From an alpha proteobacterium SCGC AAA536-G10 (lineage in GTDB: Bacteria > Pseudomonadota > Alphaproteobacteria > Puniceispirillales > Marisalimonadaceae): a DNA stretch of 64,000 nucleotides. Shown piece after piece: positions 3,891 through 62,214 of this stretch (position 1 is its first letter; each line of letters opens with the position of its first letter). The notes under the pieces are model-generated. The model was not told the origin of the DNA. It was given only the letters and a program-made list of their open reading frames with translations, and made no database searches. The position numbers were made by a program, and so were the translations under genes. The stretch lies in the NCBI GenBank assembly GCA_905182395.1, contig CAJJBL010000022.1, positions 281 through 64,280 on the forward strand. Reading direction: 5' to 3'.

Positions 3891-4703
3891 CTAAAGGTCG
3901 TCATAATGACCAGCAGAAGCAAAGTAACCTCCATGAGTAGTAACAAGAGGATCTTTAGGGTCAACAAAACCTTTTTGTTCAACAACCTTACTTCTAAAAT
4001 GTTCAGCATTATCCTCAGGTTTAAAACCTATATGATTCGCATATTTATTATCAATTAAAATTGAGTCGTTATTAGAAACTCCAAAAATAATAGAATGCTC
4101 AACATTTGAAGAATTCATACAAGCCTTAATTAAGCTTCTTAAATCATTATAGCTTAGCCAAGTAGACAGCACTCTTTCATCTTTTGGCTCAGCTAAAGAT
4201 GAATAAATTCTTATTGAAACGGTTTCAATTTTATATTTGTCCCAGTAATATTGAGCTAACGTTTCTCCAAAAACCTTTGACACACCGTAATTGCTATCTG
4301 GCCTTGGCATCATCTTATTATCAACAACATGTGATCTAGGATAGAAACCAACTGTATGAACAGAACTTGCCCATATAATTCGTTTAACATTATTTTTTCG
4401 ACATCCTTCGTATAAATTATACATACCTATTATATTCGAGTTCAAAACATTATTCCATGAACCTTCAATACTTTGGCCTCCCATATGAACAACACAGTCA
4501 ATATTTTTTGTTAATTCCAGCATTTCACTTTCATTAGATAATTCAGCTTGAATAACCGTCTCATTTTCAAATTTTTTATTTAAAGCTGCTTTATCTGATA
4601 TTCTAAGCACCTTACATGACATTGAAAGAAATTCTCTTAACTCCTCTCCTAAAGCACCCGCAGCCCCAGTTAATAATATGTTATTATATTTAAAATTAGA
4701 CAT
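3891..4703 (-). CDS. NAD-dependent SDR, uronate dehydrogenase (Udh)-like
   Basis: 270 aa. LLTGAAGALG Rossmann motif, VHMGG, NIIGMYNLYE, ASSVHTVGFYP, YGVSKVFGE, LSTWLSYNDL and GFKPEDNAE closely track my recollection of Agrobacterium/Pseudomonas Udh. Confidence 0.6.
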   Translation of the reverse strand: MSNFKYNNILLTGAAGALGEELREFLSMSCKVLRISDKAALNKKFENETVIQAELSNESEMLELTKNIDCVVHMGGQSIEGSWNNVLNSNIIGMYNLYEGCRKNNVKRIIWASSVHTVGFYPRSHVVDNKMMPRPDSNYGVSKVFGETLAQYYWDKYKIETVSIRIYSSLAEPKDERVLSTWLSYNDLRSLIKACMNSSNVEHSIIFGVSNNDSILIDNKYANHIGFKPEDNAEHFRSKVVEQKGFVDPKDPLVTTHGGYFASAGHYDDL

Positions 4704-40918: not shown

Positions 40919-40980
40919 TAAAACTATTTAAAGATTTCTAATACACTATTATAATACTGATTTATAATATTTATTTTCTT

Positions 40981-41020
40981 ACTTGCTTATAATTATTTAT
41001 ATAGATAATTATAAGCAAGT
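40981..41020. repeat. 40-bp near-perfect palindrome between the gpt promoter region and tRNA-Arg
   Basis: ACTTGCTTATAATTAT-TTATATAG-ATAATTATAAGCAAGT: 16-bp perfect arms (19 of 20 if extended), 16 nt upstream of the tRNA 5' end. Confidence 0.6.
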
Positions 41021-41035
41021 AAAATTTAAAAATAA

Positions 41036-41112
41036 GCGCTCGTAGCTCAGCTGGATAGAGCACTAGACTACGAATCTAGGGGTCAGGAGTTCGAATCTTC
41101 TCGAGCGCACCA
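41036..41112 (+). tRNA. tRNA-Arg (anticodon ACG)
   Basis: 77-nt cloverleaf folded by hand: acceptor GCGCTCG/CGAGCGC, D-arm GCTC/GAGC, anticodon arm CTAGA-CTACGAA-TCTAG, T-arm AGGAG-TTCGAAT-CTTCT, encoded CCA. Confidence 0.92.
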
Positions 41113-41215: not shown

Positions 41216-42200
41216 ATGGGATGCATGAGAAAAAGAGGTAAATCTTGGAATGCTCAAGTAAGAGTATCTGGTTGGAGAACTTTTACTAAATCATTTAAAA
41301 CAAAATTAAGTGCTACAGAATGGGTTGCGAATTTTGAAAAAGAACTTCGTTCTAAACCTATTCCAAAGAAAGATATTAAAAATTTAAAGTTAAAAAATTT
41401 ATTTAATAAATATAAATTAGAAATTCTTCCTAAGTTAAAAAGTTATAAAATCGTTTCTTATAAATTAATAAATTTGTCTAGATTATGGTTAGGAGATATT
41501 GTTGTTATAAATTTAACAAAAAGATATTTAGAACAGTTTTGTGAAGACAGAAAATTAAAGGTTCAAGAAGGCACTGTTAAATCCGAATTGATGCTAATTA
41601 AAAGAATTTTTAAAATTGCAATTGATAAATGGAATTATGGAATACCTTTTGATGCCTTTAGTGGACATGAAATTCCTTCCTCTCACAAACCAAGAAATCG
41701 AAGAGCATCTAAAGAAAAATCAACAACTCTTATATTCAATACAGAAAAACAAAAAAACAAATACATCTCCATTATCATTCAGTTTGCTGTTGAAACTAGT
41801 ATGAGAAGATCAAAGATACTTAAACTAACTTGGAACTATATAAACTTAGAGACTAGAATTGCCTCTCTGTATGACAATAAGAATGGAGATGATGGACACA
41901 TTCCATTAACTAAAACTGCTATAAAATTATTATCTGATCTTACTCAGTCATCTGAGTTTGTATTTCCAATATCTGCTAATTGTTTAAGACTTGCATGGGA
42001 GAGATGTAGATATAAATCCAATATCAAAGGATTAAGATTCCACGATTTAAGACATGAGGCAGTTTCAAAATTTTTTTGAAATGGGATTATCTGTTCCAGA
42101 GGTTGCATTGATATCTGGTCACAAAGAAGTAAGTCAATTATTTAGATATACTCATTTAAAACCAGAGAATTTGATTGCTAAATATTCAACTATTTTTTAA
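41216..42200 (+). pseudogene. tyrosine recombinase / phage-type integrase, frameshifted before the catalytic Tyr segment
   Basis: N-terminus MRKRGKSWNAQVRVSGW; catalytic R (ETSMRRSKILKLTW) and HDLRH. The ORF stops at 42079 inside a T7 run (42071-42077). The +1 frame continues EMGLSVPEVALISGHKEVSQLFRYTHLKPE..., carrying the GH and the nucleophilic Tyr, to the stop at 42198-42200. Confidence 0.8.
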
Positions 42201-42550
42201 TGTATCAATCATGGAAAATAAATGAAATTTACAAAGTTTATAGAATATTACAAATGGTTCAAAACTAATTTTCCAACTTTAAAAGAATTGGAAAGAAAGC
42301 AGTTGGAAAAAAAACTAAAAGAATTGAAAAAGTAAAAATACAAGTAACATAACAATATTCCCAAACAACAAAGTACTATCACCAAATAAATTTTATGATG
42401 AGATTGCAAAGTCTGTTAATGACAAACTTAAACAATCAAAAAATGAAACCTTTGGTGCATTAAAAGAAACAGATGATAAATTGAATTTGCCTTGGGGAAC
42501 TTTATTTGAGATGTCTGGATATGCAGATTATTTTGAATCAATATATGAAG

Positions 42551-42694
42551 ATGGTGATGATTAATCTCATTTTAGGAATAATACTCTGCATGATTGTGAT
42601 AAAATACAATCAAGAAATAGTTCAATTTTTAATTGTATCTGGTAATATAGATTCTTTAATCACTTATTTACATAGTCTTAAAGAAACCAAATGA
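42551..42694 (+). CDS. small single-TM protein (island module gene 1; paralogue at 51850)
   Basis: MVMINLILGIILCMIVIKYNQEIVQFLIVSGNIDSLITYLHSLKETK. Conserved copy in island 2. Its stop overlaps the next ATG (ATGA). Confidence 0.45.
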   Translation: MVMINLILGIILCMIVIKYNQEIVQFLIVSGNIDSLITYLHSLKETK

Positions 42695-42861
42695 ATACTA
42701 AAGTTCCTTGTCCATATTGTAGTAGTCCAAAAGGATTTATCTATGTTCAGTCACACTACCAATGTTTGACTTGTAAGAGAGTTGTTGACGACTGTTGTGG
42801 TGGTGAAACTGTTCAATGTATAGTTCCAGTCATGACGTCAAAAAAACTAGAGATAGAATAA
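42691..42861 (+). CDS. small zinc-ribbon protein (56 aa)
   Basis: Below the ORF-track cut-off. MNTKVPCPYCSSPKGFIYVQSHYQCLTCKRVVDDCCGGE...: CxxC...CxxC. ATGA overlap with the upstream ORF, and the next ATG directly follows its stop. Confidence 0.5.
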   Translation: MNTKVPCPYCSSPKGFIYVQSHYQCLTCKRVVDDCCGGETVQCIVPVMTSKKLEIE

Positions 42862-45706: not shown

Positions 45707-45777
45707 CAATGATATCCAAAGAAAAATATCAATTACTCTTTACCTTTAATAATCATTTCGATTAAACTATGAGTATG
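45707..45777 (+). repeat. junction element copy 1 (A-part truncated, B-part complete)
   Basis: ..ATGATATCCAAAGAAAAATATCAATTACTCTTTACC-18 nt-TAAACT-ATGAGT-ATG. -35-like 45739-45744, -10-like 45763-45768, ATG 45775. Confidence 0.8.
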
Positions 45778-46251
45778 AAAAAATTATTCGTTATATTATC
45801 ATTTTTAATTTCAATCACCTGTCTGTCATCACAAAGTTGGGCATTGAAAGAAAAATGGTTTCCCACAGATAAACCAAATTGCCTTGTTTGGAATTCAGAT
45901 CCTCAACCAGAAGAAACTGTTAAGTGGTCAGGAGAATGTTTGAATGGAAAAGTCAATGGTATCGGCACTTTATCATGGTCAATTGGAGATCAGTATATAG
46001 GTGAATACAAAAATGGTAACATGAATGGACAAGGGACTTATAGTTGGCAAAAGGGAGACCAATACACAGGTGAGTGGAAAAATAATCATATATATGGACA
46101 AGGTACTTTTACTTTTGTAAATGGAGATAAATTTGAAGGTGAATGGAAAGATGATCTGATGCATGGACAAGGAACTTATACTTTTGTAAATGGTAAAAAA
46201 ATAGAAGGTATATGGGAAAATGGAAAAAAAGTAGAAGTGACTAAAACCTAA
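45769..46251 (+). CDS. secreted MORN-repeat protein
   Basis: Signal peptide MKKLFVILSFLISITCLSSQSWA (from ATG 45775). About 5 tandem YxGEWKNGxxxGxG MORN repeats. Confidence 0.75.
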   Translation: MSMKKLFVILSFLISITCLSSQSWALKEKWFPTDKPNCLVWNSDPQPEETVKWSGECLNGKVNGIGTLSWSIGDQYIGEYKNGNMNGQGTYSWQKGDQYTGEWKNNHIYGQGTFTFVNGDKFEGEWKDDLMHGQGTYTFVNGKKIEGIWENGKKVEVTKT

Positions 46252-46750: not shown

Positions 46751-46860
46751 CCATTAATTATTTTTTAACAATAATAACTACTCTAATTAAACTTAGATAT
46801 ATTTATAATTAACAAGTATCAACAGCAATATCATCTCAGTTTTTAAAATAAGGATATAGT

Positions 46861-47211
46861 ATGTCTTTTTTTATTATAAAGATTTTTATAACTGCAATAT
46901 TAATTGTATCAATAAGTGAAATTGCAAAATTTAATGACCGATTAGGTGGAATTATTGGTGCAATGCCTATAACAACATTTTTAATTTTATTTTGGTTGTA
47001 TTATGAAAATAGTTCTTTAGAAAAAATTTCTAATCATATGTCATATACTTTGTTATATGTCATACCAACATTGCCAATGTTTATAACTTTTCCTTACTTC
47101 ATAAATAAATTTGGATTTTATATATCAATAATTCTAAGTATTATATTAACAATTTTATTTGTAATTATAGTACATATTATTTCTAAGAAATTTGGATATA
47201 AATTAATATAA
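46861..47211 (+). CDS. hypothetical 4-TM membrane protein
   Basis: 116 aa, strongly hydrophobic. Confidence 0.45.
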   Translation: MSFFIIKIFITAILIVSISEIAKFNDRLGGIIGAMPITTFLILFWLYYENSSLEKISNHMSYTLLYVIPTLPMFITFPYFINKFGFYISIILSIILTILFVIIVHIISKKFGYKLI

Positions 47212-47255
47212 TAAGATTACTAACAATTTTGCTAAAAAGATGATATGGAGTAAAA

Positions 47256-47498
47256 TTATTTATTTTTAGAAATTTTTAATTCTTTTTTAATTTTTTCTTC
47301 TAAATGTCCTATCATTATTCTTCTCATATACTCTGCTCTTGCTAAATCAGTAAAAGAGTATTCTCTTATATCCTCATTACTAATTCTAATAGAAAAGTTA
47401 TAAAAAGCACCACTCTTTTTTATAGTTGAAGCACTGCCAGAAGCGATTTTATTAGGACTTACAAGTGCGCCAAATTTAGTTTCAATTATATTTGTCAT
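47256..47498 (-). CDS. hypothetical 80-aa protein, paralogue A (second copy at 56138-56374)
   Basis: About 66 of the first 75 residues are identical to the 56138 ORF by hand alignment. Strong GAGGAG Shine-Dalgarno 7 nt upstream of the ATG on the minus strand. Confidence 0.6.
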   Translation of the reverse strand: MTNIIETKFGALVSPNKIASGSASTIKKSGAFYNFSIRISNEDIREYSFTDLARAEYMRRIMIGHLEEKIKKELKISKNK

Positions 47499-47570
47499 AA
47501 AATTATCTCCTCACAACATTTCTATATATTATAATATCAAATAATAAATTTAATCAATGTTTATAATATT

Positions 47571-48063: not shown

Positions 48064-48148
48064 AAAACCTAATATATAAACAACAATAGTATCTGATGAG
48101 AAATATCAATTACTCTTTAACTTTTATTTTGATTAAACTATGAGTACA
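48064..48148 (+). repeat. junction element copy 3 (full; 6-nt deletion in the promoter spacer; ATG decayed to ACA)
   Basis: AAAACCTAATATATAAACAACAATAGTATCTGATGAGAAATATCAATTACTCTTTAAC-12 nt-TAAACT-ATGAGT-ACA. Confidence 0.75.
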
Positions 48149-48627: not shown

Positions 48628-48717
48628 AAGACTAATCTATAAATTTAATAAGCATCATTAGATGAATTTCAATTACACTTTACCTTTTTAAACTATTTTG
48701 ATTAGACTATGTATATG
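48628..48717 (+). repeat. junction element copy 4 (full)
   Basis: AAAGACTAATCTATAAA...TTTCAATTACACTTTACC-18 nt-TAGACT-ATGTAT-ATG. -35-like 48679-48684, -10-like 48703-48708, ATG 48715. Confidence 0.8.
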
Positions 48718-49614
48718 AAAAATAAAGATTGGATATTAGTGATTTTACTTGGTCTCTTTTGGGGATCAAGTTTCTTTTTTGTTGAGATGCTTTTAAAGTA
48801 TCTAAGTCCCTTTATGATCGTTTATCTTAGAGTGTCAATTGCATCTATTTTTTTAATTGTGTTTATAATCATTCGAGGTACTAAATTTAAACTATCACTC
48901 AAAAACCTTTTTAATCTTTTTATAATGAGTTTATTGAATAACATTTTTCCTTTTCTTCTTATAACTTTTGGTCAACAAACTACGACAGGCGGTTTAGCAT
49001 CAATTTTAAATGCAAACACATCTTTTATTGGAATACTTTTAGCATCATTATTTTTACCTCTAGAGCGACTAAATTTTTATAGATTAATAGGAGTTTCAAT
49101 TGGAGTTTTAGGAGTAATAATCGCTATTGGTTATCAAAATATTATTCAATTAAATGATGATGATTTAGGTAAATATTTAATTTTAATTGCCACCCTTTCA
49201 TATGGTTTTGCAGGAGTATGGGGAAAATTAAAACTACAAAATTTTACTCCTATTATCGCTGCCACAGGTATGTTAACAATGAGCACTATAATTCTTACTC
49301 CATACGCTTTTACAATGCACTTAGAAGAAATATATTCTTTAAACTTTTTTATTCTTAAATATGCATTTGTTTTTGCAATAATTTGCTCGGTATTTGCTTA
49401 TTTTTTATATTTTAAAATACTTGAAAGTGCAGGAGCAGGAAATCTATTAATTTGTACTATAATTATTCCTCCTTCATCAATCTTCCTAAATGCTTTTATA
49501 TTAGATCAAATTATTACTTTTAATGAATGTTTGGGATTAATAATCATTATATTAGGTCTAATTATATTAGATGGTCGCTTAATAAACAAACATACCCCCA
49601 CCTCCCAAAAATGA
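48715..49614 (+). CDS. EamA/DMT-family transporter
   Basis: About 10 TM helices, two EamA halves. Start taken at the element-borne ATG 48715 (ORF track: 48709). Confidence 0.75.
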   Translation: MKNKDWILVILLGLFWGSSFFFVEMLLKYLSPFMIVYLRVSIASIFLIVFIIIRGTKFKLSLKNLFNLFIMSLLNNIFPFLLITFGQQTTTGGLASILNANTSFIGILLASLFLPLERLNFYRLIGVSIGVLGVIIAIGYQNIIQLNDDDLGKYLILIATLSYGFAGVWGKLKLQNFTPIIAATGMLTMSTIILTPYAFTMHLEEIYSLNFFILKYAFVFAIICSVFAYFLYFKILESAGAGNLLICTIIIPPSSIFLNAFILDQIITFNECLGLIIIILGLIILDGRLINKHTPTSQK

Positions 49615-50455: not shown

Positions 50456-50709
50456 TATTAAAAGAGTAGGTAATGATTGCACATCTGTCTATCATTCATA
50501 GTAGTGTTAAATTCTAAAATAATGGAAAAGAAATGCATAAAACAATAAAAATAATTATCGGTACCGTTCTCATCATATACATTGTTCTGGTTGTTATGCA
50601 GTTAACAGGAATAAGTTTATTTTAAGAAGTAATAGTTACTAATTAATATAAACCAGAAGTGTTAAAATTAAGAAATTATTAATCCCCTACTGCTTAAAAC
50701 TGACAACTA

Positions 50710-50799
50710 GAAACTAATCTATAAATCACGATATTATCTAGAAAGAAATATCAATTACTCTTTACCTTTAATATGTATTTTGATTAAACTTTGACAATG
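50710..50799 (+). repeat. junction element copy 6 (full)
   Basis: GAAACTAATCTATAAATCACGATATTATCTAGAAAGAAATATCAATTACTCTTTACC-18 nt-TAAACT-TTGACA-ATG. The ATG at 50797 opens only a 13-codon ORF. Confidence 0.8.
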
Positions 50800-51020: not shown

Positions 51021-51536
51021 ATGTTTAGGAAAGGTTTAGACACTATGGGAATGATGAGAAGTAGATACATACCACATTGTTGTTTTGTATATTTGACTGA
51101 AGAATTAAAATATCTAACCACAATAACTAAATGTGATGAGGAATGGATTAGAAATGATATGGAAAATGTAGAAGAATTTAAAAGAAGAATTGAAAGTGGC
51201 GAAATGTTTGAAGATGAAATACACCCATATGAAATAAGTCAAAAAGGAGATGATTTTTACCTTTATGAATGTGAACCAATTAAAAATGAAAGGTATAAAG
51301 AATTACTACAAAAGTATGGAAAATTAGAAGAATACATTAATGAAGAAAAACCTATTGATGTATTTTTTGGAATTGGAGAAGGTAGAATCTATGTTGAAGA
51401 GGGTAAGTTTAATACCAAAGAAGAAGGAGGGTCACATATCTATGATGAAAATGGTTATGGAACAGAAAATCCAAAATATAGATTTACAAAATTAAAAAAA
51501 ACGGAAAAATTATTTAGAAAAGTTAGATTAGGTTAA
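51021..51536 (+). CDS. hypothetical acidic protein
   Basis: 171-aa ORF. No recognised family. Confidence 0.4.
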   Translation: MFRKGLDTMGMMRSRYIPHCCFVYLTEELKYLTTITKCDEEWIRNDMENVEEFKRRIESGEMFEDEIHPYEISQKGDDFYLYECEPIKNERYKELLQKYGKLEEYINEEKPIDVFFGIGEGRIYVEEGKFNTKEEGGSHIYDENGYGTENPKYRFTKLKKTEKLFRKVRLG

Positions 51537-51537
51537 A

Positions 51538-51587
51538 CAAAAACCTAATCTATAAACCACGATAGTATCCAGAGAGAAATATTAATC
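51538..51587 (+). repeat. junction element copy 7 (A-part only), last element before the island 1 right end
   Basis: CAAAAACCTAATCTATAAACCACGATAGTATCCAGAGAGAAATATTAATCA, directly after the stop at 51534-51536. Confidence 0.8.
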
Positions 51588-51700
51588 ATACACCAATTAA
51601 ATGCCCTCAGATTGTCACACAGATTTGACACAGTAAGGCAATAAAAGGTACTATTATTCAATAATAAATCTTTAAGAAAATAAGGGTTTAAAGGGGTCAA

Positions 51701-51762
51701 CTGGATAGAAAACTAGACTACGAATCTAGAAGGAAGGAGTTAGAATTTTCTCTAACGCACCA
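51701..51762 (+). pseudogene. degenerate partial copy of tRNA-Arg (att direct repeat; D-loop to CCA)
   Basis: CTGGATAGAAAACTAGACTACGAATCTAGAAGGAAGGAGTTAGAATTTTCTCTAACGCACCA versus tRNA 41051-41112: 52/62 identical by hand alignment. The 5' acceptor half is missing and the T-arm and acceptor pairings are broken. Confidence 0.8.
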
Positions 51763-51849
51763 TTTCTGATTATTTTTTTACAAAACTAAATCTTCAATTT
51801 AGAACTTTATTTGATATGTCTTTAAGAACAGATTATTTTAAAGGAATAT

Positions 51850-52006
51850 AATGAGATGGTCATGATTAGTTTTTATTTTACTTTTAGGAATTATTCTTTG
51901 TTTAATTATAATAAATTATAATCAAGAAATAGTTCAATTCTTAATTGTATCTGATAATATAGATTCGTTAATCAACTATCTACAGAGTTTTAAAGAAACC
52001 AAATGA
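51850..52006 (+). CDS. small single-TM protein (paralogue of 42551-42694)
   Basis: MRWSWLVFILLLGIILCLIIINYNQEIVQFLIVSDNIDSLINYLQSFKETK. Same ATGA stop/start overlap with the next ORF as in island 1. Confidence 0.45.
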
Positions 52007-52200
52007 AATATAAAACACTAGAAGAAATACAAAAAAATTCCGTATGGATAAAGTTACAATCTCATGGCACTGAAAAAGAACAACTTGATAAACAATTCTT
52101 GTCTCTTACAGAAGATGAAAAGATTGTTGCAATTGACTTATTTGAGTCTTTGAAAGTTGTGATGGAAAATGTCCTTAAAGAAAAGAAAACTCATCATTAG
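52003..52200 (+). CDS. hypothetical protein
   Basis: 65-aa ORF translationally coupled (ATGA) to the small TM gene. Confidence 0.4.
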   Translation: MKYKTLEEIQKNSVWIKLQSHGTEKEQLDKQFLSLTEDEKIVAIDLFESLKVVMENVLKEKKTHH

Positions 52201-54253: not shown

Positions 54254-54340
54254 CAAAAATCTAATCTAACAATCACGATAGTTTCCAAAATTAAACATCA
54301 ATCTTATCTTTACCTCTTACAACTATTTTAATTAAAAAAC
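54254..54340 (+). repeat. junction element copy 8 (full, diverged)
   Basis: CAAAAATCTAATCTAACAATCACGATAGTTTCCAAAATT...ATCTTTACC-18 nt-TAAAAA. -35-like 54309-54314. Confidence 0.7.
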
Positions 54341-54505: not shown

Positions 54506-54814
54506 ATGTCAATTTCACTTCAAGTGTTATACCCAATAACAGAAACAACAAACTTTGATTATGATTATTATTTTTCTAAACATATGAAACTTGTAAAAGA
54601 TACGTTTGGCGACCATTTAGATGATACCCTTGTTATAAAAGGTATTGCTGGTGGACCTGATAAAACTCCAGCATATTACGCTATTGCAACGATGATTTTC
54701 AAAAATCAATCCGCTATGGATTTAGCGTTATCAGGAGCAAGCCCCGTACTTGAAGATATTCCAAATTTTACTAATACGGAACCAGTTATGTTAATAGGCG
54801 AGGTCGTATCCTAA
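54506..54814 (+). CDS. EthD-domain protein (TIGR02118-like)
   Basis: 102 aa. LQVLYPITETTNFDYDYYFSKHMKLV...AIATMIFKNQSAMDLAL...FTN pattern of the EthD family. Confidence 0.6.
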   Translation: MSISLQVLYPITETTNFDYDYYFSKHMKLVKDTFGDHLDDTLVIKGIAGGPDKTPAYYAIATMIFKNQSAMDLALSGASPVLEDIPNFTNTEPVMLIGEVVS

Positions 54815-55560: not shown

Positions 55561-55652
55561 CAAAATCTAATTAGAGATAAACATTGTTTCTAGACTTAAA
55601 TATTAATCTTATCTTTACCTTTCTCAATCATTTTGATTAAACTATGAGTATT
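55561..55652 (+). repeat. junction element copy 9 (A-part diverged, B-part complete, ATG decayed to ATT)
   Basis: CAAAATCTAATTAGAGATAAACATTGTTTCTAGAC...ATCTTTACC-18 nt-TAAACT-ATGAGT-ATT. -35-like 55614-55619, -10-like 55638-55643. Confidence 0.75.
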
Positions 55653-55702: not shown

Positions 55703-55870
55703 ATGAGCAAACAGACTATAGGTTGGATAATAGTTGGTAGTTGTTTACTATGGGGTTTGTTAAGAGCTGGAGATTTGGTTGAACCTAATTTTGTTATAAA
55801 TTTTTTAGCAATTGGGGGTTTTTGTTTAGGAATTCACTTAACAAAAAATAATGAAGATAAAGAAGAATAA
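55703..55870 (+). CDS. hypothetical small 2-TM protein
   Basis: MSKQTIGWIIVGSCLLWGLLRAGD...FLAIGGFCLGIHL. ATG at 55703 preferred over the TTG at 55667. Confidence 0.35.
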   Translation: MSKQTIGWIIVGSCLLWGLLRAGDLVEPNFVINFLAIGGFCLGIHLTKNNEDKEE

Positions 55871-56137
55871 TTGTCGTCAATCATAGAATGATAGGTAAAT
55901 TATTATGGATAAAGAATCTCAAGAAAAACTTCGTACTTGGTGGGATGATGGAGACAGTAAATTAAAAAAATCTCTGTATATTTTTTTATGTCTGCAAATA
56001 CTTTTAGGAATTATCTGGTTTATTGAATATATTTTCATATAAAATAAGTTCATATTAAAACAAAAACAATCAACACTTAATCTTTAACCAATAACAGCAA
56101 ATATAATATCAATTATTCTTAAATTTTATAATTGTTT

Positions 56138-56374
56138 TTACTTAGGTTTTTTTATTTCTTTTTTAATTTTTTCTTCTAAATGTCCTATCATTATTCTTCT
56201 CATATACTCTGCTCTTCCCAAATTAGTAAAAGAATATTCTCTTATGTCATCATTACTAATTCTAATAGAAAAGTTATAAAAAGCACCATTCTTTTTTATG
56301 CTTGAAGCACTCCCAGAAGCAATTTTATTAGGACTTACTAGTGTACCAAACTTGGTTTCAGTTATGTTTGCCAT
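56138..56374 (-). CDS. hypothetical 78-aa protein, paralogue B (see 47256-47498)
   Basis: MANITETKFGTLVSPNKIASGSASSIKKNGAFYNFSIRISNDDIREYSF...; GGTG/AGAGGTG SD-like sequence upstream. Confidence 0.6.
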   Translation of the reverse strand: MANITETKFGTLVSPNKIASGSASSIKKNGAFYNFSIRISNDDIREYSFTNLGRAEYMRRIMIGHLEEKIKKEIKKPK

Positions 56375-56493
56375 AAAAATTACACCTCTATATAGTATTA
56401 ATTATTAATCTAATATTAAAAATTAAATTAAATCAAACATAATCTCTATCAAGGTAAATATTGTAAGCTTTAATATAAGCAAATATTTTTGAT

Positions 56494-56547
56494 TGATAAT
56501 ATTACTTGTTTACCTTACGCAACTATTTTGATTAGACTGTTAATATG
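56494..56547 (+). repeat. junction element copy 10 (B-part only)
   Basis: ..GATAATATTACTTGTTTACC-18 nt-TAGACT-GTTAAT-ATG. -35-like 56509-56514, -10-like 56533-56538. The ATG at 56545 is the ORF start. Confidence 0.75.
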
Positions 56548-56817
56548 TTAATCTTAATCAAAGAGCTCTCTAAAAATGAATATGAAATTATAGTTAACTC
56601 GGACACTTCAACTAAACATATTGTTACTTTAACAGATATAGTTTATCAAAAATTTACTAATGAAAAGATTACTAAAAAGGAACTTTTGGACTTTAGTTTT
56701 AAATTTCTATTAGAAAGAGAACCTAACACTTCAATCCTTTCTTTTTTTGAATTAAAAATCATTACAAGATATTTTCCTGAATATGAAGTGAGCATTAAAA
56801 AATGGTGTGGGTTTTGA
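56545..56817 (+). CDS. hypothetical protein
   Basis: 90-aa ORF beginning at the element-borne ATG. Confidence 0.45.
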   Translation: MLILIKELSKNEYEIIVNSDTSTKHIVTLTDIVYQKFTNEKITKKELLDFSFKFLLEREPNTSILSFFELKIITRYFPEYEVSIKKWCGF

Positions 56818-57690: not shown

Positions 57691-57748
57691 AGAAAAGTAT
57701 CAATTATCCTTTGCCTACCATAATCATTTTGATTAAACTGTGATTATA
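57691..57748 (+). repeat. junction element copy 12 (B-part only)
   Basis: AGAAAAGTATCAATTATCCTTTGCC-18 nt-TAAACT-GTGATT-ATA. -35-like 57710-57715, -10-like 57734-57739. Confidence 0.7.
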
Positions 57749-57781: not shown

Positions 57782-58054
57782 ATGAATTTTAAAGATGGTG
57801 AAGAAGCAGCGGAAAAAGAAATTAAAGAAAACGGTTTTGATATTAATTTATGGAATGAGTTTTTAGAAAATCCTGACGATTTTAATAAACTTTTTAGTAA
57901 ATTATTAATAGGTCAATCTGACAATTTTATCCAAGGTTATAGGAGTTATTACAGTTCTTATTCATTATGGGCAGATACAAAAGCATATAGAAACAACCTT
58001 CCTTTTTGGAGAACACCATGGAAAAAAACAAAGAAACCATTAAATGAAATATAA
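57782..58054 (+). CDS. hypothetical protein
   Basis: 90-aa ORF, 42 nt downstream of the element's -10-like box. Confidence 0.4.
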   Translation: MNFKDGEEAAEKEIKENGFDINLWNEFLENPDDFNKLFSKLLIGQSDNFIQGYRSYYSSYSLWADTKAYRNNLPFWRTPWKKTKKPLNEI

Positions 58055-58910: not shown

Positions 58911-58986
58911 TTTATAAATCCTAATAGTATCTATGGTGCAATATCAATTTCTCTTTAGCTTATATTATTTTGGTTAAACTTTAATA
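58911..58986 (+). repeat. junction element copy 13 (full but diverged; 15-nt promoter spacer)
   Basis: TTTATAAATCCTAATAGTATCTATGGTGCAATATCAATTTCTCTTTAGC-15 nt-TAAACT. Confidence 0.65.
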
Positions 58987-60427: not shown

Positions 60428-60519
60428 TAAAAACTAATCTATAAATGCAATAAGTATCAAGAGCAATATATCAATTACTCTTAACCTTTCTAATCTATTT
60501 TGATTACACTATAAGTATG
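60428..60519 (+). repeat. junction element copy 14 (full) lying between two minus-strand genes
   Basis: TAAAAACTAATCTATAAATGCAATAAGTATCAAGAGCAATATATCAATTACTCTTAACC-18 nt-TACACT-ATAAGT-ATG. The ATG at 60517 opens only a 23-codon ORF antisense to the 3' end of the 560-aa gene. Confidence 0.8.
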
Positions 60520-60531
60520 AAGAAACCTTTT

Positions 60532-62214
60532 TTAATAAAAGAATCTTCTTTTAACAGTTGTTTGTTGTCTGACACTACTTCCATTTAAATTTGGGAAAAT
60601 AAATTGATCTGCTGATAATCTAAACATATATCTATTGTTTATTGTTATTGGTGTTAAATCCATTCTTATTGAATGTTTTTTATCTAACGCATATTCTTTT
60701 TTGTTTTGTTCTTTTAACATATCTGAAACGTAAGGTATAAATTTGTATAACAAATCTGATTGTCCTGCTTTTAATATGTATCCAATTTTTTTTGAATTTT
60801 TATTGCAGTATTTTTTTGCACTCATATAGAAGTAATCAAACACTCCGTCTAAATTGATAAATTGAGTAATATCTTTAATAGGATATTTTTGATCATTTAC
60901 TGCTTTTTTTCTAAAACCATCCACAAATTTGAAACAAGATTGCATTGCAAATATATCAACTACATTTAAAAATCGATAGTCTGCAAGAATAACATTTTGA
61001 GGAGTTGCAATGATTTCTTCTTTACTCATTGAACTAGTTGCAAATAAAATTTTATCTTTCTTTACTTTGAATTCACCAATACAAGTATAAAACTCATCAA
61101 AGAAAGTTGGGTTTTCCATTTGCCCTTTAGTCAACCATTTATCTTCTAAAATTTTTTCTGCTTCATCATCTTGTACCTTACAATATTTTTTAATAATAAA
61201 AGATGAAATGAACCAACCTAAACGAACTGCAGTAAATTTAGATAATGAGTATGAAAAACTATTCCCTGCTTGATAAATTAGACTATATTGATTGTCTAAT
61301 GTTATCCCTTTTCTTATTGGTTCTCCTTTAGGAACTTTAAATGAACGATAAACTGTCAGATATTCATCATCTCCAACATTATTAAAAATAGTTTTAGTCC
61401 AAAAATCAGTTATTGGAAATTTGCTTGATTTATCTACAAGAGAATCTTTAAACTCACCATTATTCATTGAACTATTTAAGGTTTCATTTAATTGTAATCT
61501 TTCTTCAAATGGAATATCTAATCTTCCATAACGAGCAAAAGTTTTGTCTGTAAAGTATTTACTTTGAATTGTAAAAATCCATTCAAATATGTGCCAGAAC
61601 ATTCTATTGTCAGTAATTAAATGTTCAAGTTCCTCAAACCATTTAAAAATATATAATGGCATTTCTAATGTTTCATTTGCGTCCATTTTATGTGTATGAA
61701 TATTCCATCTATATTTTGAAAATAAAAAAAACAAACAAGTATCAATATAACTCAGAGTTACTTCACCATCTTCAACGCCTGTATTACTTCCATGATGTAT
61801 TTCTAATGGGTTAAGGTAACCAAAAGATTTTAAAAACCATTCCATCATTTCTTTTGAAGTATTAGTTTTTTTTATGTTTTGATCAAATTCATTTATTGGA
61901 ACGTATTGAAAAAAGTATTTTATATTAAAAAAAGGAGTTCCATCTTTATTAGTTTTTTTCCAAACTTGTTTTTCTTGTTCTTTTATTTTATCAAGTTTTA
62001 TTTTTTTCTCTAATTCTTTTGCTTTAAATGCGTCTCGTTTTTCCCATTTTGTACGAATAGGTTCTTCAAGTTTCCAAACAACTGAATCATACAAAGATGG
62101 AAAATTATTTTTAATTGCTTTTTTTTCTTCATAGTTTTTTTTACCAAGAGAAATTTTTTTTATTATTTCAATTGCTTCTTTATTATCCATTTTTAGAATA
62201 TTCCATATTGACAT
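60532..62214 (-). CDS. large orphan protein (560 aa)
   Basis: Long uninterrupted ORF, the largest in the island. N-terminal Lys/Glu-rich coiled-coil region. No family recognised by eye. Confidence 0.55.
   Translation of the reverse strand: MSIWNILKMDNKEAIEIIKKISLGKKNYEEKKAIKNNFPSLYDSVVWKLEEPIRTKWEKRDAFKAKELEKKIKLDKIKEQEKQVWKKTNKDGTPFFNIKYFFQYVPINEFDQNIKKTNTSKEMMEWFLKSFGYLNPLEIHHGSNTGVEDGEVTLSYIDTCLFFLFSKYRWNIHTHKMDANETLEMPLYIFKWFEELEHLITDNRMFWHIFEWIFTIQSKYFTDKTFARYGRLDIPFEERLQLNETLNSSMNNGEFKDSLVDKSSKFPITDFWTKTIFNNVGDDEYLTVYRSFKVPKGEPIRKGITLDNQYSLIYQAGNSFSYSLSKFTAVRLGWFISSFIIKKYCKVQDDEAEKILEDKWLTKGQMENPTFFDEFYTCIGEFKVKKDKILFATSSMSKEEIIATPQNVILADYRFLNVVDIFAMQSCFKFVDGFRKKAVNDQKYPIKDITQFINLDGVFDYFYMSAKKYCNKNSKKIGYILKAGQSDLLYKFIPYVSDMLKEQNKKEYALDKKHSIRMDLTPITINNRYMFRLSADQFIFPNLNGSSVRQQTTVKRRFFY

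Follow-up and report, generated by a model that had tools for sequence, protein, structure and literature searches.

Leaderless transcription is generally recognised by a Pribnow box that lies 6-8 nucleotides (nt) from the start codon. This signature is common in Actinobacteria and Deinococcus and rare in Proteobacteria, of which 5.6% of the genomes are placed in the corresponding group C of GeneMarkS-2 (PMC6028130). For integrons, transcription from promoters inside the large arrays of Vibrio has been studied (PMC2945992). In the part of the integron literature available to us, the cassettes are described as usually promoterless. The Correia elements of Neisseria are miniature inverted-repeat transposable elements (MITEs) with terminal inverted repeats and target-site duplications, which insert on their own. 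Here we describe the B module, a candidate promoter of ~45 nt that recurs at the 5' ends of mobile gene cassettes in a 64,000-nt stretch of DNA, referred to as the window, from the alphaproteobacterium SCGC AAA536-G10 (contig CAJJBL010000022.1, positions 281 to 64,280, forward strand). All features are given in window coordinates and lie on the plus strand unless stated otherwise.

The B module resembles the group C promoters of Actinobacteria and Deinococcus in that a -10-like box lies 6-8 nt before an ATG, no room is left for a Shine-Dalgarno (SD) sequence and the genome also has leadered genes that do bear an SD. It differs from them in being one homologous module with a conserved -35-like box and conserved inter-box sequence, located on the mobile cassettes of a proteobacterial host. 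Moreover, the signal is not genome-wide: the core-gene part of the window, 41 kb long, lacks the motif TARACT-N6-ATG except for a single chance match. With integron arrays, especially the large chromosomal ones of Vibrio, whose attC sites (VCRs) are conserved in sequence, the surrounding island shares mostly co-oriented cassettes of one or two genes, a conserved repeat between them, a tyrosine recombinase at one end and small cassettes that are found in different neighbourhoods. In contrast to integrons, the island has no attC-like hairpin or dyad and no recognisable IntI, and the core of its repeat is unstructured and C-rich. Whereas integron cassettes are usually promoterless, as far as the accounts at hand go, about half of the cassettes described here carry the same standardised promoter-like module. 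Correia elements are likewise dispersed short repeats that provide -35/-10-like boxes to the adjacent gene; unlike them, the B module has no inverted repeats and moves with the gene as part of a cassette. The island also has a tRNA neighbour, a tyrosine recombinase, a partial tRNA repeat and small cargo genes in common with the tRNA-linked islands and tycheposon-like elements of marine picoplankton, to the extent that these are covered by the partial descriptions available to us.

If the B module is a working promoter, it would show by what means an abundant ocean bacterium with a streamlined genome can bring recently acquired genes to expression. With each cassette would come a compact expression signal of ~45 nt that depends on no upstream promoter and on no ribosome-binding site, a design unlike that of integrons, whose cassettes rely on one array promoter, and leaderless translation would be part of a mobile-gene strategy in a proteobacterium. 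The module also defines a cassette boundary by which the flexible genes of this lineage can be mined in metagenomic data, and would offer a natural minimal expression part.

Geometry and conservation of the B module

The consensus of the module consists of ATCAATTACT, the -35-like sequence CTTTACC, 10 variable nt, TATTTTGAT, the -10-like box TARACT (T-A-n-A-n-T), 6 nt with the consensus GTGAGT, and A-T-(G). Counted from the end of the box, this final triplet begins at position +7. The original prediction, made from the letters of the window, had listed eight pairs of hexamers separated by 18 nt and five ATGs lying 6 nt past the second hexamer, and both lists hold. The pattern TTKRCC-N18-TAVAMW occurs at seven sites in the window (45739, 48679, 50761, 54309, 55614, 56509 and 57710), while shuffled windows contain 1.2 such sites on average and none of 100 shuffles reaches seven; the eighth pair, TTAACC at 60481 and TACACT at 60505, is a member of the repeat family D5. 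The ATGs are found at 45775, 48715, 50797, 56545 and 60517. Beyond these copies, the window contains a ninth one with 18-nt spacing (46764/46788) and two with a deletion in the spacer (48115-48139 and 58953-58980).

To follow the spacing outside the window, reference genomes were scanned for CTTTACC followed, after a gap of 8-12 nt, by ATTTYGATTARACT. All of the ~26 genuine matches, which come from low-GC SAR116 genomes, have a gap of exactly 10 nt, corresponding to 18 nt between the hexamers, while the five matches with other gaps belong to unrelated organisms and contexts. The metagenomes were scanned with the neighbouring A part of the junction to avoid circularity, yielding 138 distinct junctions in which the B side is unselected. 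When gaps of 4-16 nt were permitted in a fuzzy search across all loci, 138 distinct pairs resulted, of which 112 show the canonical spacing; nearly all others are chance matches in unrelated sequence, and the rare real exceptions, with 17 or 19 nt, are off by a single nt. These 112 copies, all distinct and drawn from marine metagenomes as well as related genomes, are the basis of the counts of box sequences and +7 triplets given below. The hexamer spacing is near-invariant among them while the sequence of the spacer varies, in agreement with what had been claimed from the window, and the spacing thus survives in more than 100 further copies, the comparison on which the prediction had been made to depend. 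An 18-nt spacing lies within the 16-18 nt of sigma-70-type promoters. The box reads TARACT or TARAAT in ~100 of the 112 copies and so contains the T-12, A-11 and T-7 of a sigma-70 -10 element.

The conservation along the module was determined from 61 distinct copies, which were chosen solely by the 7 nt to the left of the -35-like box. It is organised in blocks: CTTTACC is conserved at ~0.8, the following 9-10 nt at 0.4-0.7 and TATTTTGATTA again at ~0.8. The positions of the box reach T.79, A.82, A.52, A.79, C.51 and T.82, and after 6 nt at 0.35-0.65 the final triplet rises to A.80, T.77 and G.56. A and T at +7 and +8 are thus more conserved than the G, which fits a preferred initiating purine.

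In a subfamily represented by nine loci, ~20 extra nt, including the palindrome CCCAAGTTGGG, are inserted between the core of the A part and the -35-like box, while the -35/18/-10/6 layout is kept. Hence, the spacing constraint lies inside B and is not relative to A, which is what would be predicted for a two-box promoter. The insert itself opens with CCCAAGTTGGG followed by AATTTT and may act as a dyad bound by a protein or as a tiny terminator.

Two further assignments of the module were dismissed. The near-complete absence of TARACT-N6-ATG from the core genes does not allow B to be the general housekeeping promoter of the lineage. A phage origin was rejected after a search of the viral contig collection gave no match to the A pattern or the B pattern.

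Gene starts, leaders and transcription

An ATG lies exactly 6 nt past the box in 65 of the 112 copies (58%). The next most common triplets at +7 are ATA (15 copies) and ATT (7 copies), and GTG is found in just 1 of 112. Where the ATG is present, 45 of 60 complete open reading frames (ORFs) have at least 45 codons, the longest having 699; where it is missing, that frame has a median open length of ~6 codons. As the TAA or TAG within TARACT is in frame with the ATG, 4 codons upstream, these ORFs cannot extend beyond two further codons. They encode ~40 distinct N-termini, many of them MKK-plus-hydrophobic signal peptides, and proteins of at least 14 unrelated families, among them MORN, MORN_2, EamA, GST, cupin, MaoC dehydratase, Nmad3, T5orf172 and GIY-YIG. 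For the GST, Nmad3 and T5orf172 proteins, the Pfam domain sets in within residues 1-5, with the match itself starting at residue 3. From these comparisons, the ATG at +7 is evidently a genuine gene start for many unrelated families.

Three of the ATGs in the window had been proposed to open real genes, which the ORFs bear out. The module at 45739-45777 (TTTACC at 45739, 18 nt, TAAACT at 45763, 6 nt, ATG at 45775) leads directly into a MORN-repeat protein of 158 amino acids (aa) at 45775-46251, with the signal-peptide-like N-terminus MKKLFVILSFLIS. The module at 48679-48717 (TTTACC, 18 nt, TAGACT, 6 nt, ATG at 48715) opens an EamA-family transporter of 299 aa (48715-49614, N-terminus MKNKDW). 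The third, at 56509-56547 (TTTACC, 18 nt, TAGACT, 6 nt, ATG at 56545), has no A core upstream and starts a 90-aa ORF (MLILIKELSKNEYEI..., 56545-56817); related genes, also of 90 aa, begin at the +7 ATG of a B module in other loci.

Public gene calls place the starts of the MORN and EamA genes at 45769 and 48709, each at an ATG right after the box and two codons before the conserved ATG (L156-L165). However, the codon at -2 varies across copies (GTG, GTA, TTG, ATA and others), and a potential start codon (GTG, TTG or ATG) is found there in 21 of 50 copies with a +7 ATG and 24 of 63 without. This codon therefore reflects the GTGAGT consensus of the module, not a signal for starting translation, and the public calls are probably too long by 2 residues. 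Under the promoter model, the MORN and EamA gene starts, called two codons too early, would be corrected.

The original prediction had further stated that these ATGs leave no room for an SD sequence. Indeed, the 20 nt 5' of the +7 ATG, which are the conserved module itself, contain no SD-like 4-mer, so that translation from these ATGs must be SD-independent, wherever the transcript begins.

Nuclease families are part of the cargo: at three loci, the genes that begin at the +7 ATG encode Nmad3, T5orf172/MUG113 and GIY-YIG proteins. These families are often tied to phage defence or mobile DNA.

The remaining copies give a different picture. Without a usable ATG at +7, 49 distinct copies still keep the module, and an ORF of at least 40 codons starts a median of 39 nt past the predicted start site. 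An SD 4-mer (AAGG, AGGA, GGAG or GAGG) lies 5-17 nt before the first start in 15 of the 49, compared with 7.7% of random 13-mers (p = 2e-6), and the count increases to 26 of 49 when in-frame alternative starts are allowed. The window contains several such copies. The module at 46764-46793 (TTTAAC, 18 nt, TAAACT) has no ATG at +7 and is followed by a gene at 46861-47211 with the SD sequence AAGGA; the one at 54309-54338 (TTTACC, 18 nt, TAAAAA) is followed by a gene at 54506-54814 preceded by TAGGAG; and the one at 55614-55652, with ATT at +7, by an ATG at 55703 that is preceded by TGGAGA and opens a 55-aa product. At 57710-57739 (TTTGCC, 18 nt, TAAACT) the +7 triplet is ATA, and a 90-aa ORF begins 36 nt downstream, at 57782. 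The copy at 50761-50799 carries an ATG (50797), while the 171-aa gene behind it starts at 51021, 224 nt downstream, and the degenerate copy at 48115-48139 combines a 5-nt deletion in the spacer with ACA in place of the ATG. Copies without the ATG had been described as decayed. The triplets named for this, ATT at 55650 and ACA at 48146, were read correctly, but decay does not hold for most copies, which keep the module and have SD-enriched genes a median of 39 nt downstream. B instead appears to be a general promoter-like unit that is used in two modes, leaderless or with a short leader and an SD sequence. Such a split is hard to explain for a translation signal and easy to explain for a promoter.

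We therefore consider a promoter that gives leaderless or short-leader mRNAs to be the best explanation of the B module, and a probable one, if far from certain. The module would be located at the 5' end of each mobile gene cassette, and RNA polymerase, perhaps with a sigma-70-type factor, would start at, or 1-2 nt from, the conserved A 7 nt past the box. In ~45% of the copies this A would be the first base of the ATG of the gene, resulting in an mRNA without 5' leader or SD sequence, whose 5'-terminal AUG would have to serve initiation. In most other copies the module would act from a median of 39 nt upstream of the gene, often one with its own SD sequence. Of the original proposal of a promoter for leaderless expression, the predictions for spacing, conserved blocks, gene starts and portability agree with the sequences, while the decay of the ATG does not, and the -35-like box lacks the canonical G.

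Several observations weigh against a promoter of this kind. TTTACC matches TTGACA at 4 of 6 positions, with a conserved T replacing the G of TTG, and the TTGC-type boxes upstream of the signal recognition particle (SRP) RNA and tRNA-Arg genes in the window do keep this G. The most conserved part of B is TATTTTGAT, between the hexamers, and the TG in it precedes the position of a textbook extended -10 element by one base. A generic sigma-70 consensus scan shows no excess in the AT-rich region, with 144 sites against 152 expected; as it performs no better than on shuffled DNA of 25% GC, the resemblance of the hexamers alone weighs little, and the case for the promoter rests on the comparative constraint, not on resemblance. 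In two window copies the frame behind the +7 ATG is short, with 13 codons only at 50797 and 23 codons only at 60517. An obvious SD motif is missing from about half of the window's core genes too, so that its absence is not unusual in this genome. The cassettes follow one another head to tail without hairpin terminators, making read-through transcription possible. Finally, the ends of contigs are scattered and do not pile up at the site, as expected for assembly breaks at repeats.

Some of these features would also be accounted for by a promoter that is recognised by an alternative sigma factor, or that shares an activator or repressor bound to TATTTTGAT or the A core, in which case the cassettes would form one regulon. 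The conserved non-consensus CTTTACC differs from the TTGC-type boxes at the RNA genes, TATTTTGAT is as conserved as the boxes flanking it, and the motif is lacking in the core genes bar its one chance match, all of which speak for this reading. However, no sigma factor or regulator gene was identified in the island, the T-A-n-A-n-T box and 18-nt spacing fit the sigma-70-type geometry, and the variable distance from A to B speaks against a fixed-position activator site in A. We regard a common regulon as unlikely.

The AT-rich stretch directly 5' of the ATG is conserved, and the module could instead be an SD-independent translation initiation region within long read-through transcripts, to which the AU-rich sequence recruits ribosomes, for example through protein S1. 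The co-orientation of cassettes with no hairpin terminators between them and the core genes without a clear SD, about half of the total, would agree with such a role. In contrast, CTTTACC 30 nt upstream and the strict 18-nt spacing serve no translation signal, and ~49 copies keep the full geometry without a gene start at +7, the gene then following at a median distance of 39 nt and in many cases behind an SD of its own. The stronger conservation of A and T at +7 and +8 compared with the G also speaks against it. A translation signal is therefore rather improbable as the function of B.

Linkage to the downstream gene and exchange at the A core

The promoter reading was accompanied by the claim that the module is portable. 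All pairs among 100 junctions were compared. For pairs that share the downstream gene and differ in the upstream one, the identity of B is 0.85; for pairs with the reverse pattern it is 0.39, equal to the background. Cassettes in different neighbourhoods are represented by 24 pairs with the same downstream but different upstream sequence and by 49 pairs of the reverse kind. Followed along the positions, the resemblance to the upstream partner breaks off between +35 and +40 of the A core, immediately past GAGAGAAATATC. The B module is hence the 5' end of the downstream cassette and moves with the downstream gene, as had been claimed.

The A part, with the approximate sequence (ACMCCCA)CYCCCTYAAAACTGACAACCAAAAC-CTAATCTATAAACCACGATAGTATCCAGAGAGAAATATC, is longer and much more conserved than B, and its core has a mean pairwise identity of 0.93. 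The core at 50714-50752 (CTAATCTATAAAtCACGATAtTATCtAGAaAGAAATATC), directly 5' of a B module, is an example; others start at ~45692 (degenerate), 46248, 46717, 48069, 48632 and 49623, and further ones at ~51545, 54261, 55568 (degenerate), 58907 and 60434. Upstream stop codons are mostly found 27-60 nt 5' of the core, so that A is mainly 3' untranslated sequence, and the core itself holds stop codons in all three frames. Judging from the breakpoints, the A core is the place of cassette exchange and is separate from B. A total of 143 distinct A cores comprises 76 (53%) with a B module behind them and 67 with none, and B is also present in loci without a nearby A core. The ORFs upstream of such B-only copies in two loci are unrelated to the integrase of the window, which excludes that B always stands beside an integrase.

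In an alternative reading, the blocks of B are recombinase binding sites in an att- or attC-like site with the inverted cores CTAATC and GATTAG, the fixed distance to the ATG being a by-product of the cutting and joining of cassettes. CTAATC, with which A begins, is indeed the reverse complement of the GATTAG that the TAGACT variants contain ~70 nt away, the junctions form a cassette-like array with a median A-to-A spacing of 1.27 kb (range 0.44-3.7 kb), and a tyrosine recombinase is encoded at the head of the island. Other properties disagree with such a site. The exchange breakpoints fall 5' of B, either within the A core or where it ends, 47% of the A cores have no B behind them while B also occurs without a nearby A, and the distance between the two parts can shift by 20 nt. 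Neither a dyad nor a hairpin was found: when three junctions were folded as single strands, neither strand did better than shuffled sequences, and the consensus structure from an alignment of 60 junctions has a folding energy of 0.0 kcal/mol on the plus and -1.2 kcal/mol on the minus strand. The sole recombinase scores 29 bits with the XerA/integron-integrase model, far below the cut-off of 220, and in Pfam matches only the generic Phage_integrase family, so that it is not identifiable as an integron integrase. With unstructured junctions and a recombinase that is not IntI-like, an integron with attC sites was rejected, and recombinase binding by the B blocks appears quite improbable.

It is more improbable still that B is a functionless remnant, decaying slowly after a repeat had spread with the cassettes. 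In favour of it, all copies are clearly homologous and several in the window are degenerate, but conservation is in blocks instead of decaying evenly, indels are almost absent from the variable spacer, the +7 ATG coincides with real gene starts in unrelated families, and the copy at 58953, with a short spacer, no ATG and minus-strand genes only, fits a loss of constraint where no co-oriented gene is present.

For the A part, a role in termination is conceivable. From -30 to +14 its bases comprise 30% C and 3.6% G in 119 distinct copies (50690-50752 being an example in the window), compared with 12.6% C and 13.2% G in the island. Rho utilisation (rut) sites are characterised as C-rich, G-poor and unstructured for ~60 nt or more past the stop codon, and the composition of the A part corresponds to this. 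It may therefore serve as a Rho-type terminator or insulator. Combining this with the promoter reading, one could tentatively picture a gene-capture system of low-GC SAR116 bacteria that is integron-like but built differently: cassettes would be exchanged at an unstructured C-rich core of ~45-70 nt that doubles as a Rho-type insulator, and about half of them would carry their own promoter set to the ATG. We see this as a possible outline, well short of a likely one.

Other candidates for the junction were not retained. It belongs to no known RNA family, as Rfam gave nothing at the gathering threshold in the window and nothing at E <= 1 for a 300-nt junction. Pairing of the C-tract with upstream sequence, as needed for a hairpin or terminator, is possible in 19 of 117 junctions only, and just 15 of 106 fit a use of the minus strand of the A5 motif as SD sequence and start for minus-strand genes. 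A MITE was dismissed as well, since the junction has no terminal inverted repeats beyond the 6-nt pair CTAATC/GATTAG.

Two variants of the junction were observed. In one class, represented by five loci, the A core is followed by AAAACACCCTACCCCC..AAACTGACAAAG, which repeats an A5-like motif (CCCC-TAAAACTGACAA), and no B comes after it. At 51524-51552, an 11-bp inverted repeat is formed where the 171-aa gene ends (AGATTAGGTTAAAC) and the next A core begins (CTAATCT), which was flagged by a terminator scan on the minus strand and recurs in four other loci.

The island and its host

The first 41 kb of the window, with the genes for YidC, the RNase P protein and SRP RNA, have a GC content of ~30%, and the sequence beyond has ~25%. 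At the transition, tRNA-Arg (ACG; 41036-41112) provides the attachment point, followed at the head of the island by the tyrosine recombinase of 287 aa (41216-42079). A second, incomplete copy of the 3' part of tRNA-Arg, 84% identical, lies at 51697-51765 and forms the boundary between two integrated elements in tandem. In three metagenomic contigs (L160, L164 and L165) unrelated DNA precedes the sequence that starts at 41096, inside the tRNA 3' end. Based on the partial tRNA copy and on this change of neighbourhood, the low-GC stretch is a tRNA-Arg-linked flexible island built from tandem integrative elements. Ten long contigs that are ~99.7% identical to the window reflect population variation of the island; given this identity, they provide almost no contrast at the level of cassettes.

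Nearly all matches to the repeats among reference genomes come from low-GC SAR116 single-cell and metagenome-assembled genomes, together with the cultured Ca. Levibacter sp., and we assign the host to the low-GC SAR116 as a Ca. Levibacteraceae-like bacterium. The name Levibacter reflects the low GC content of that family, 31.4%, and with Ca. Levibacter a cultured relative of the host exists (PMC12421898). In Ca. Levibacter sp. Uisw_134_01, the predicted leaderless start is the ATG of a 699-aa MORN-like gene, at position 4091 of locus L033. The paper describing Ca. Levibacter mentions neither cassettes nor integrons (PMC12421898), and a text search of the available literature for the repeat sequence found no paper that contains it.

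Some further features of the island were noted. Sequence at 42478-42702, next to the integrase, resembles 51783-52014; this integrase-proximal remnant, together with the partial tRNA copy, marks the second element. A near-perfect 40-nt palindrome (ACTTGCTTATAATTAT...ATAATTATAAGCAAGT) at 40980-41020 lies directly 5' of tRNA-Arg and overlaps the likely tRNA promoter. A direct repeat of 281 nt, 85% identical, is found at 47251-47531 and 56127-56407; it spans two ORFs of ~80 aa on the minus strand (47256-47498 and 56138-56374) and looks like a duplicated small gene common to both tandem elements.

Two copies of the B module had been said to point antisense into the 3' ends of minus-strand genes, and the ORF layout agrees for both. 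The degenerate copy at 58953-58980 has a shortened spacer and no ATG and faces the 3' ends of such genes. At 60481-60519 (TTAACC, 18 nt, TACACT, 6 nt, ATG at 60517), the 23-codon ORF runs antisense into the stop of a minus-strand ORF of 560 aa (60532-62214). An intact module with a +7 ATG thus lies 15 nt from the stop of a convergent gene, a layout (60517-60585) that is kept in two other loci from different genomes, and this copy could drive an antisense RNA or the expression of a 23-codon peptide.

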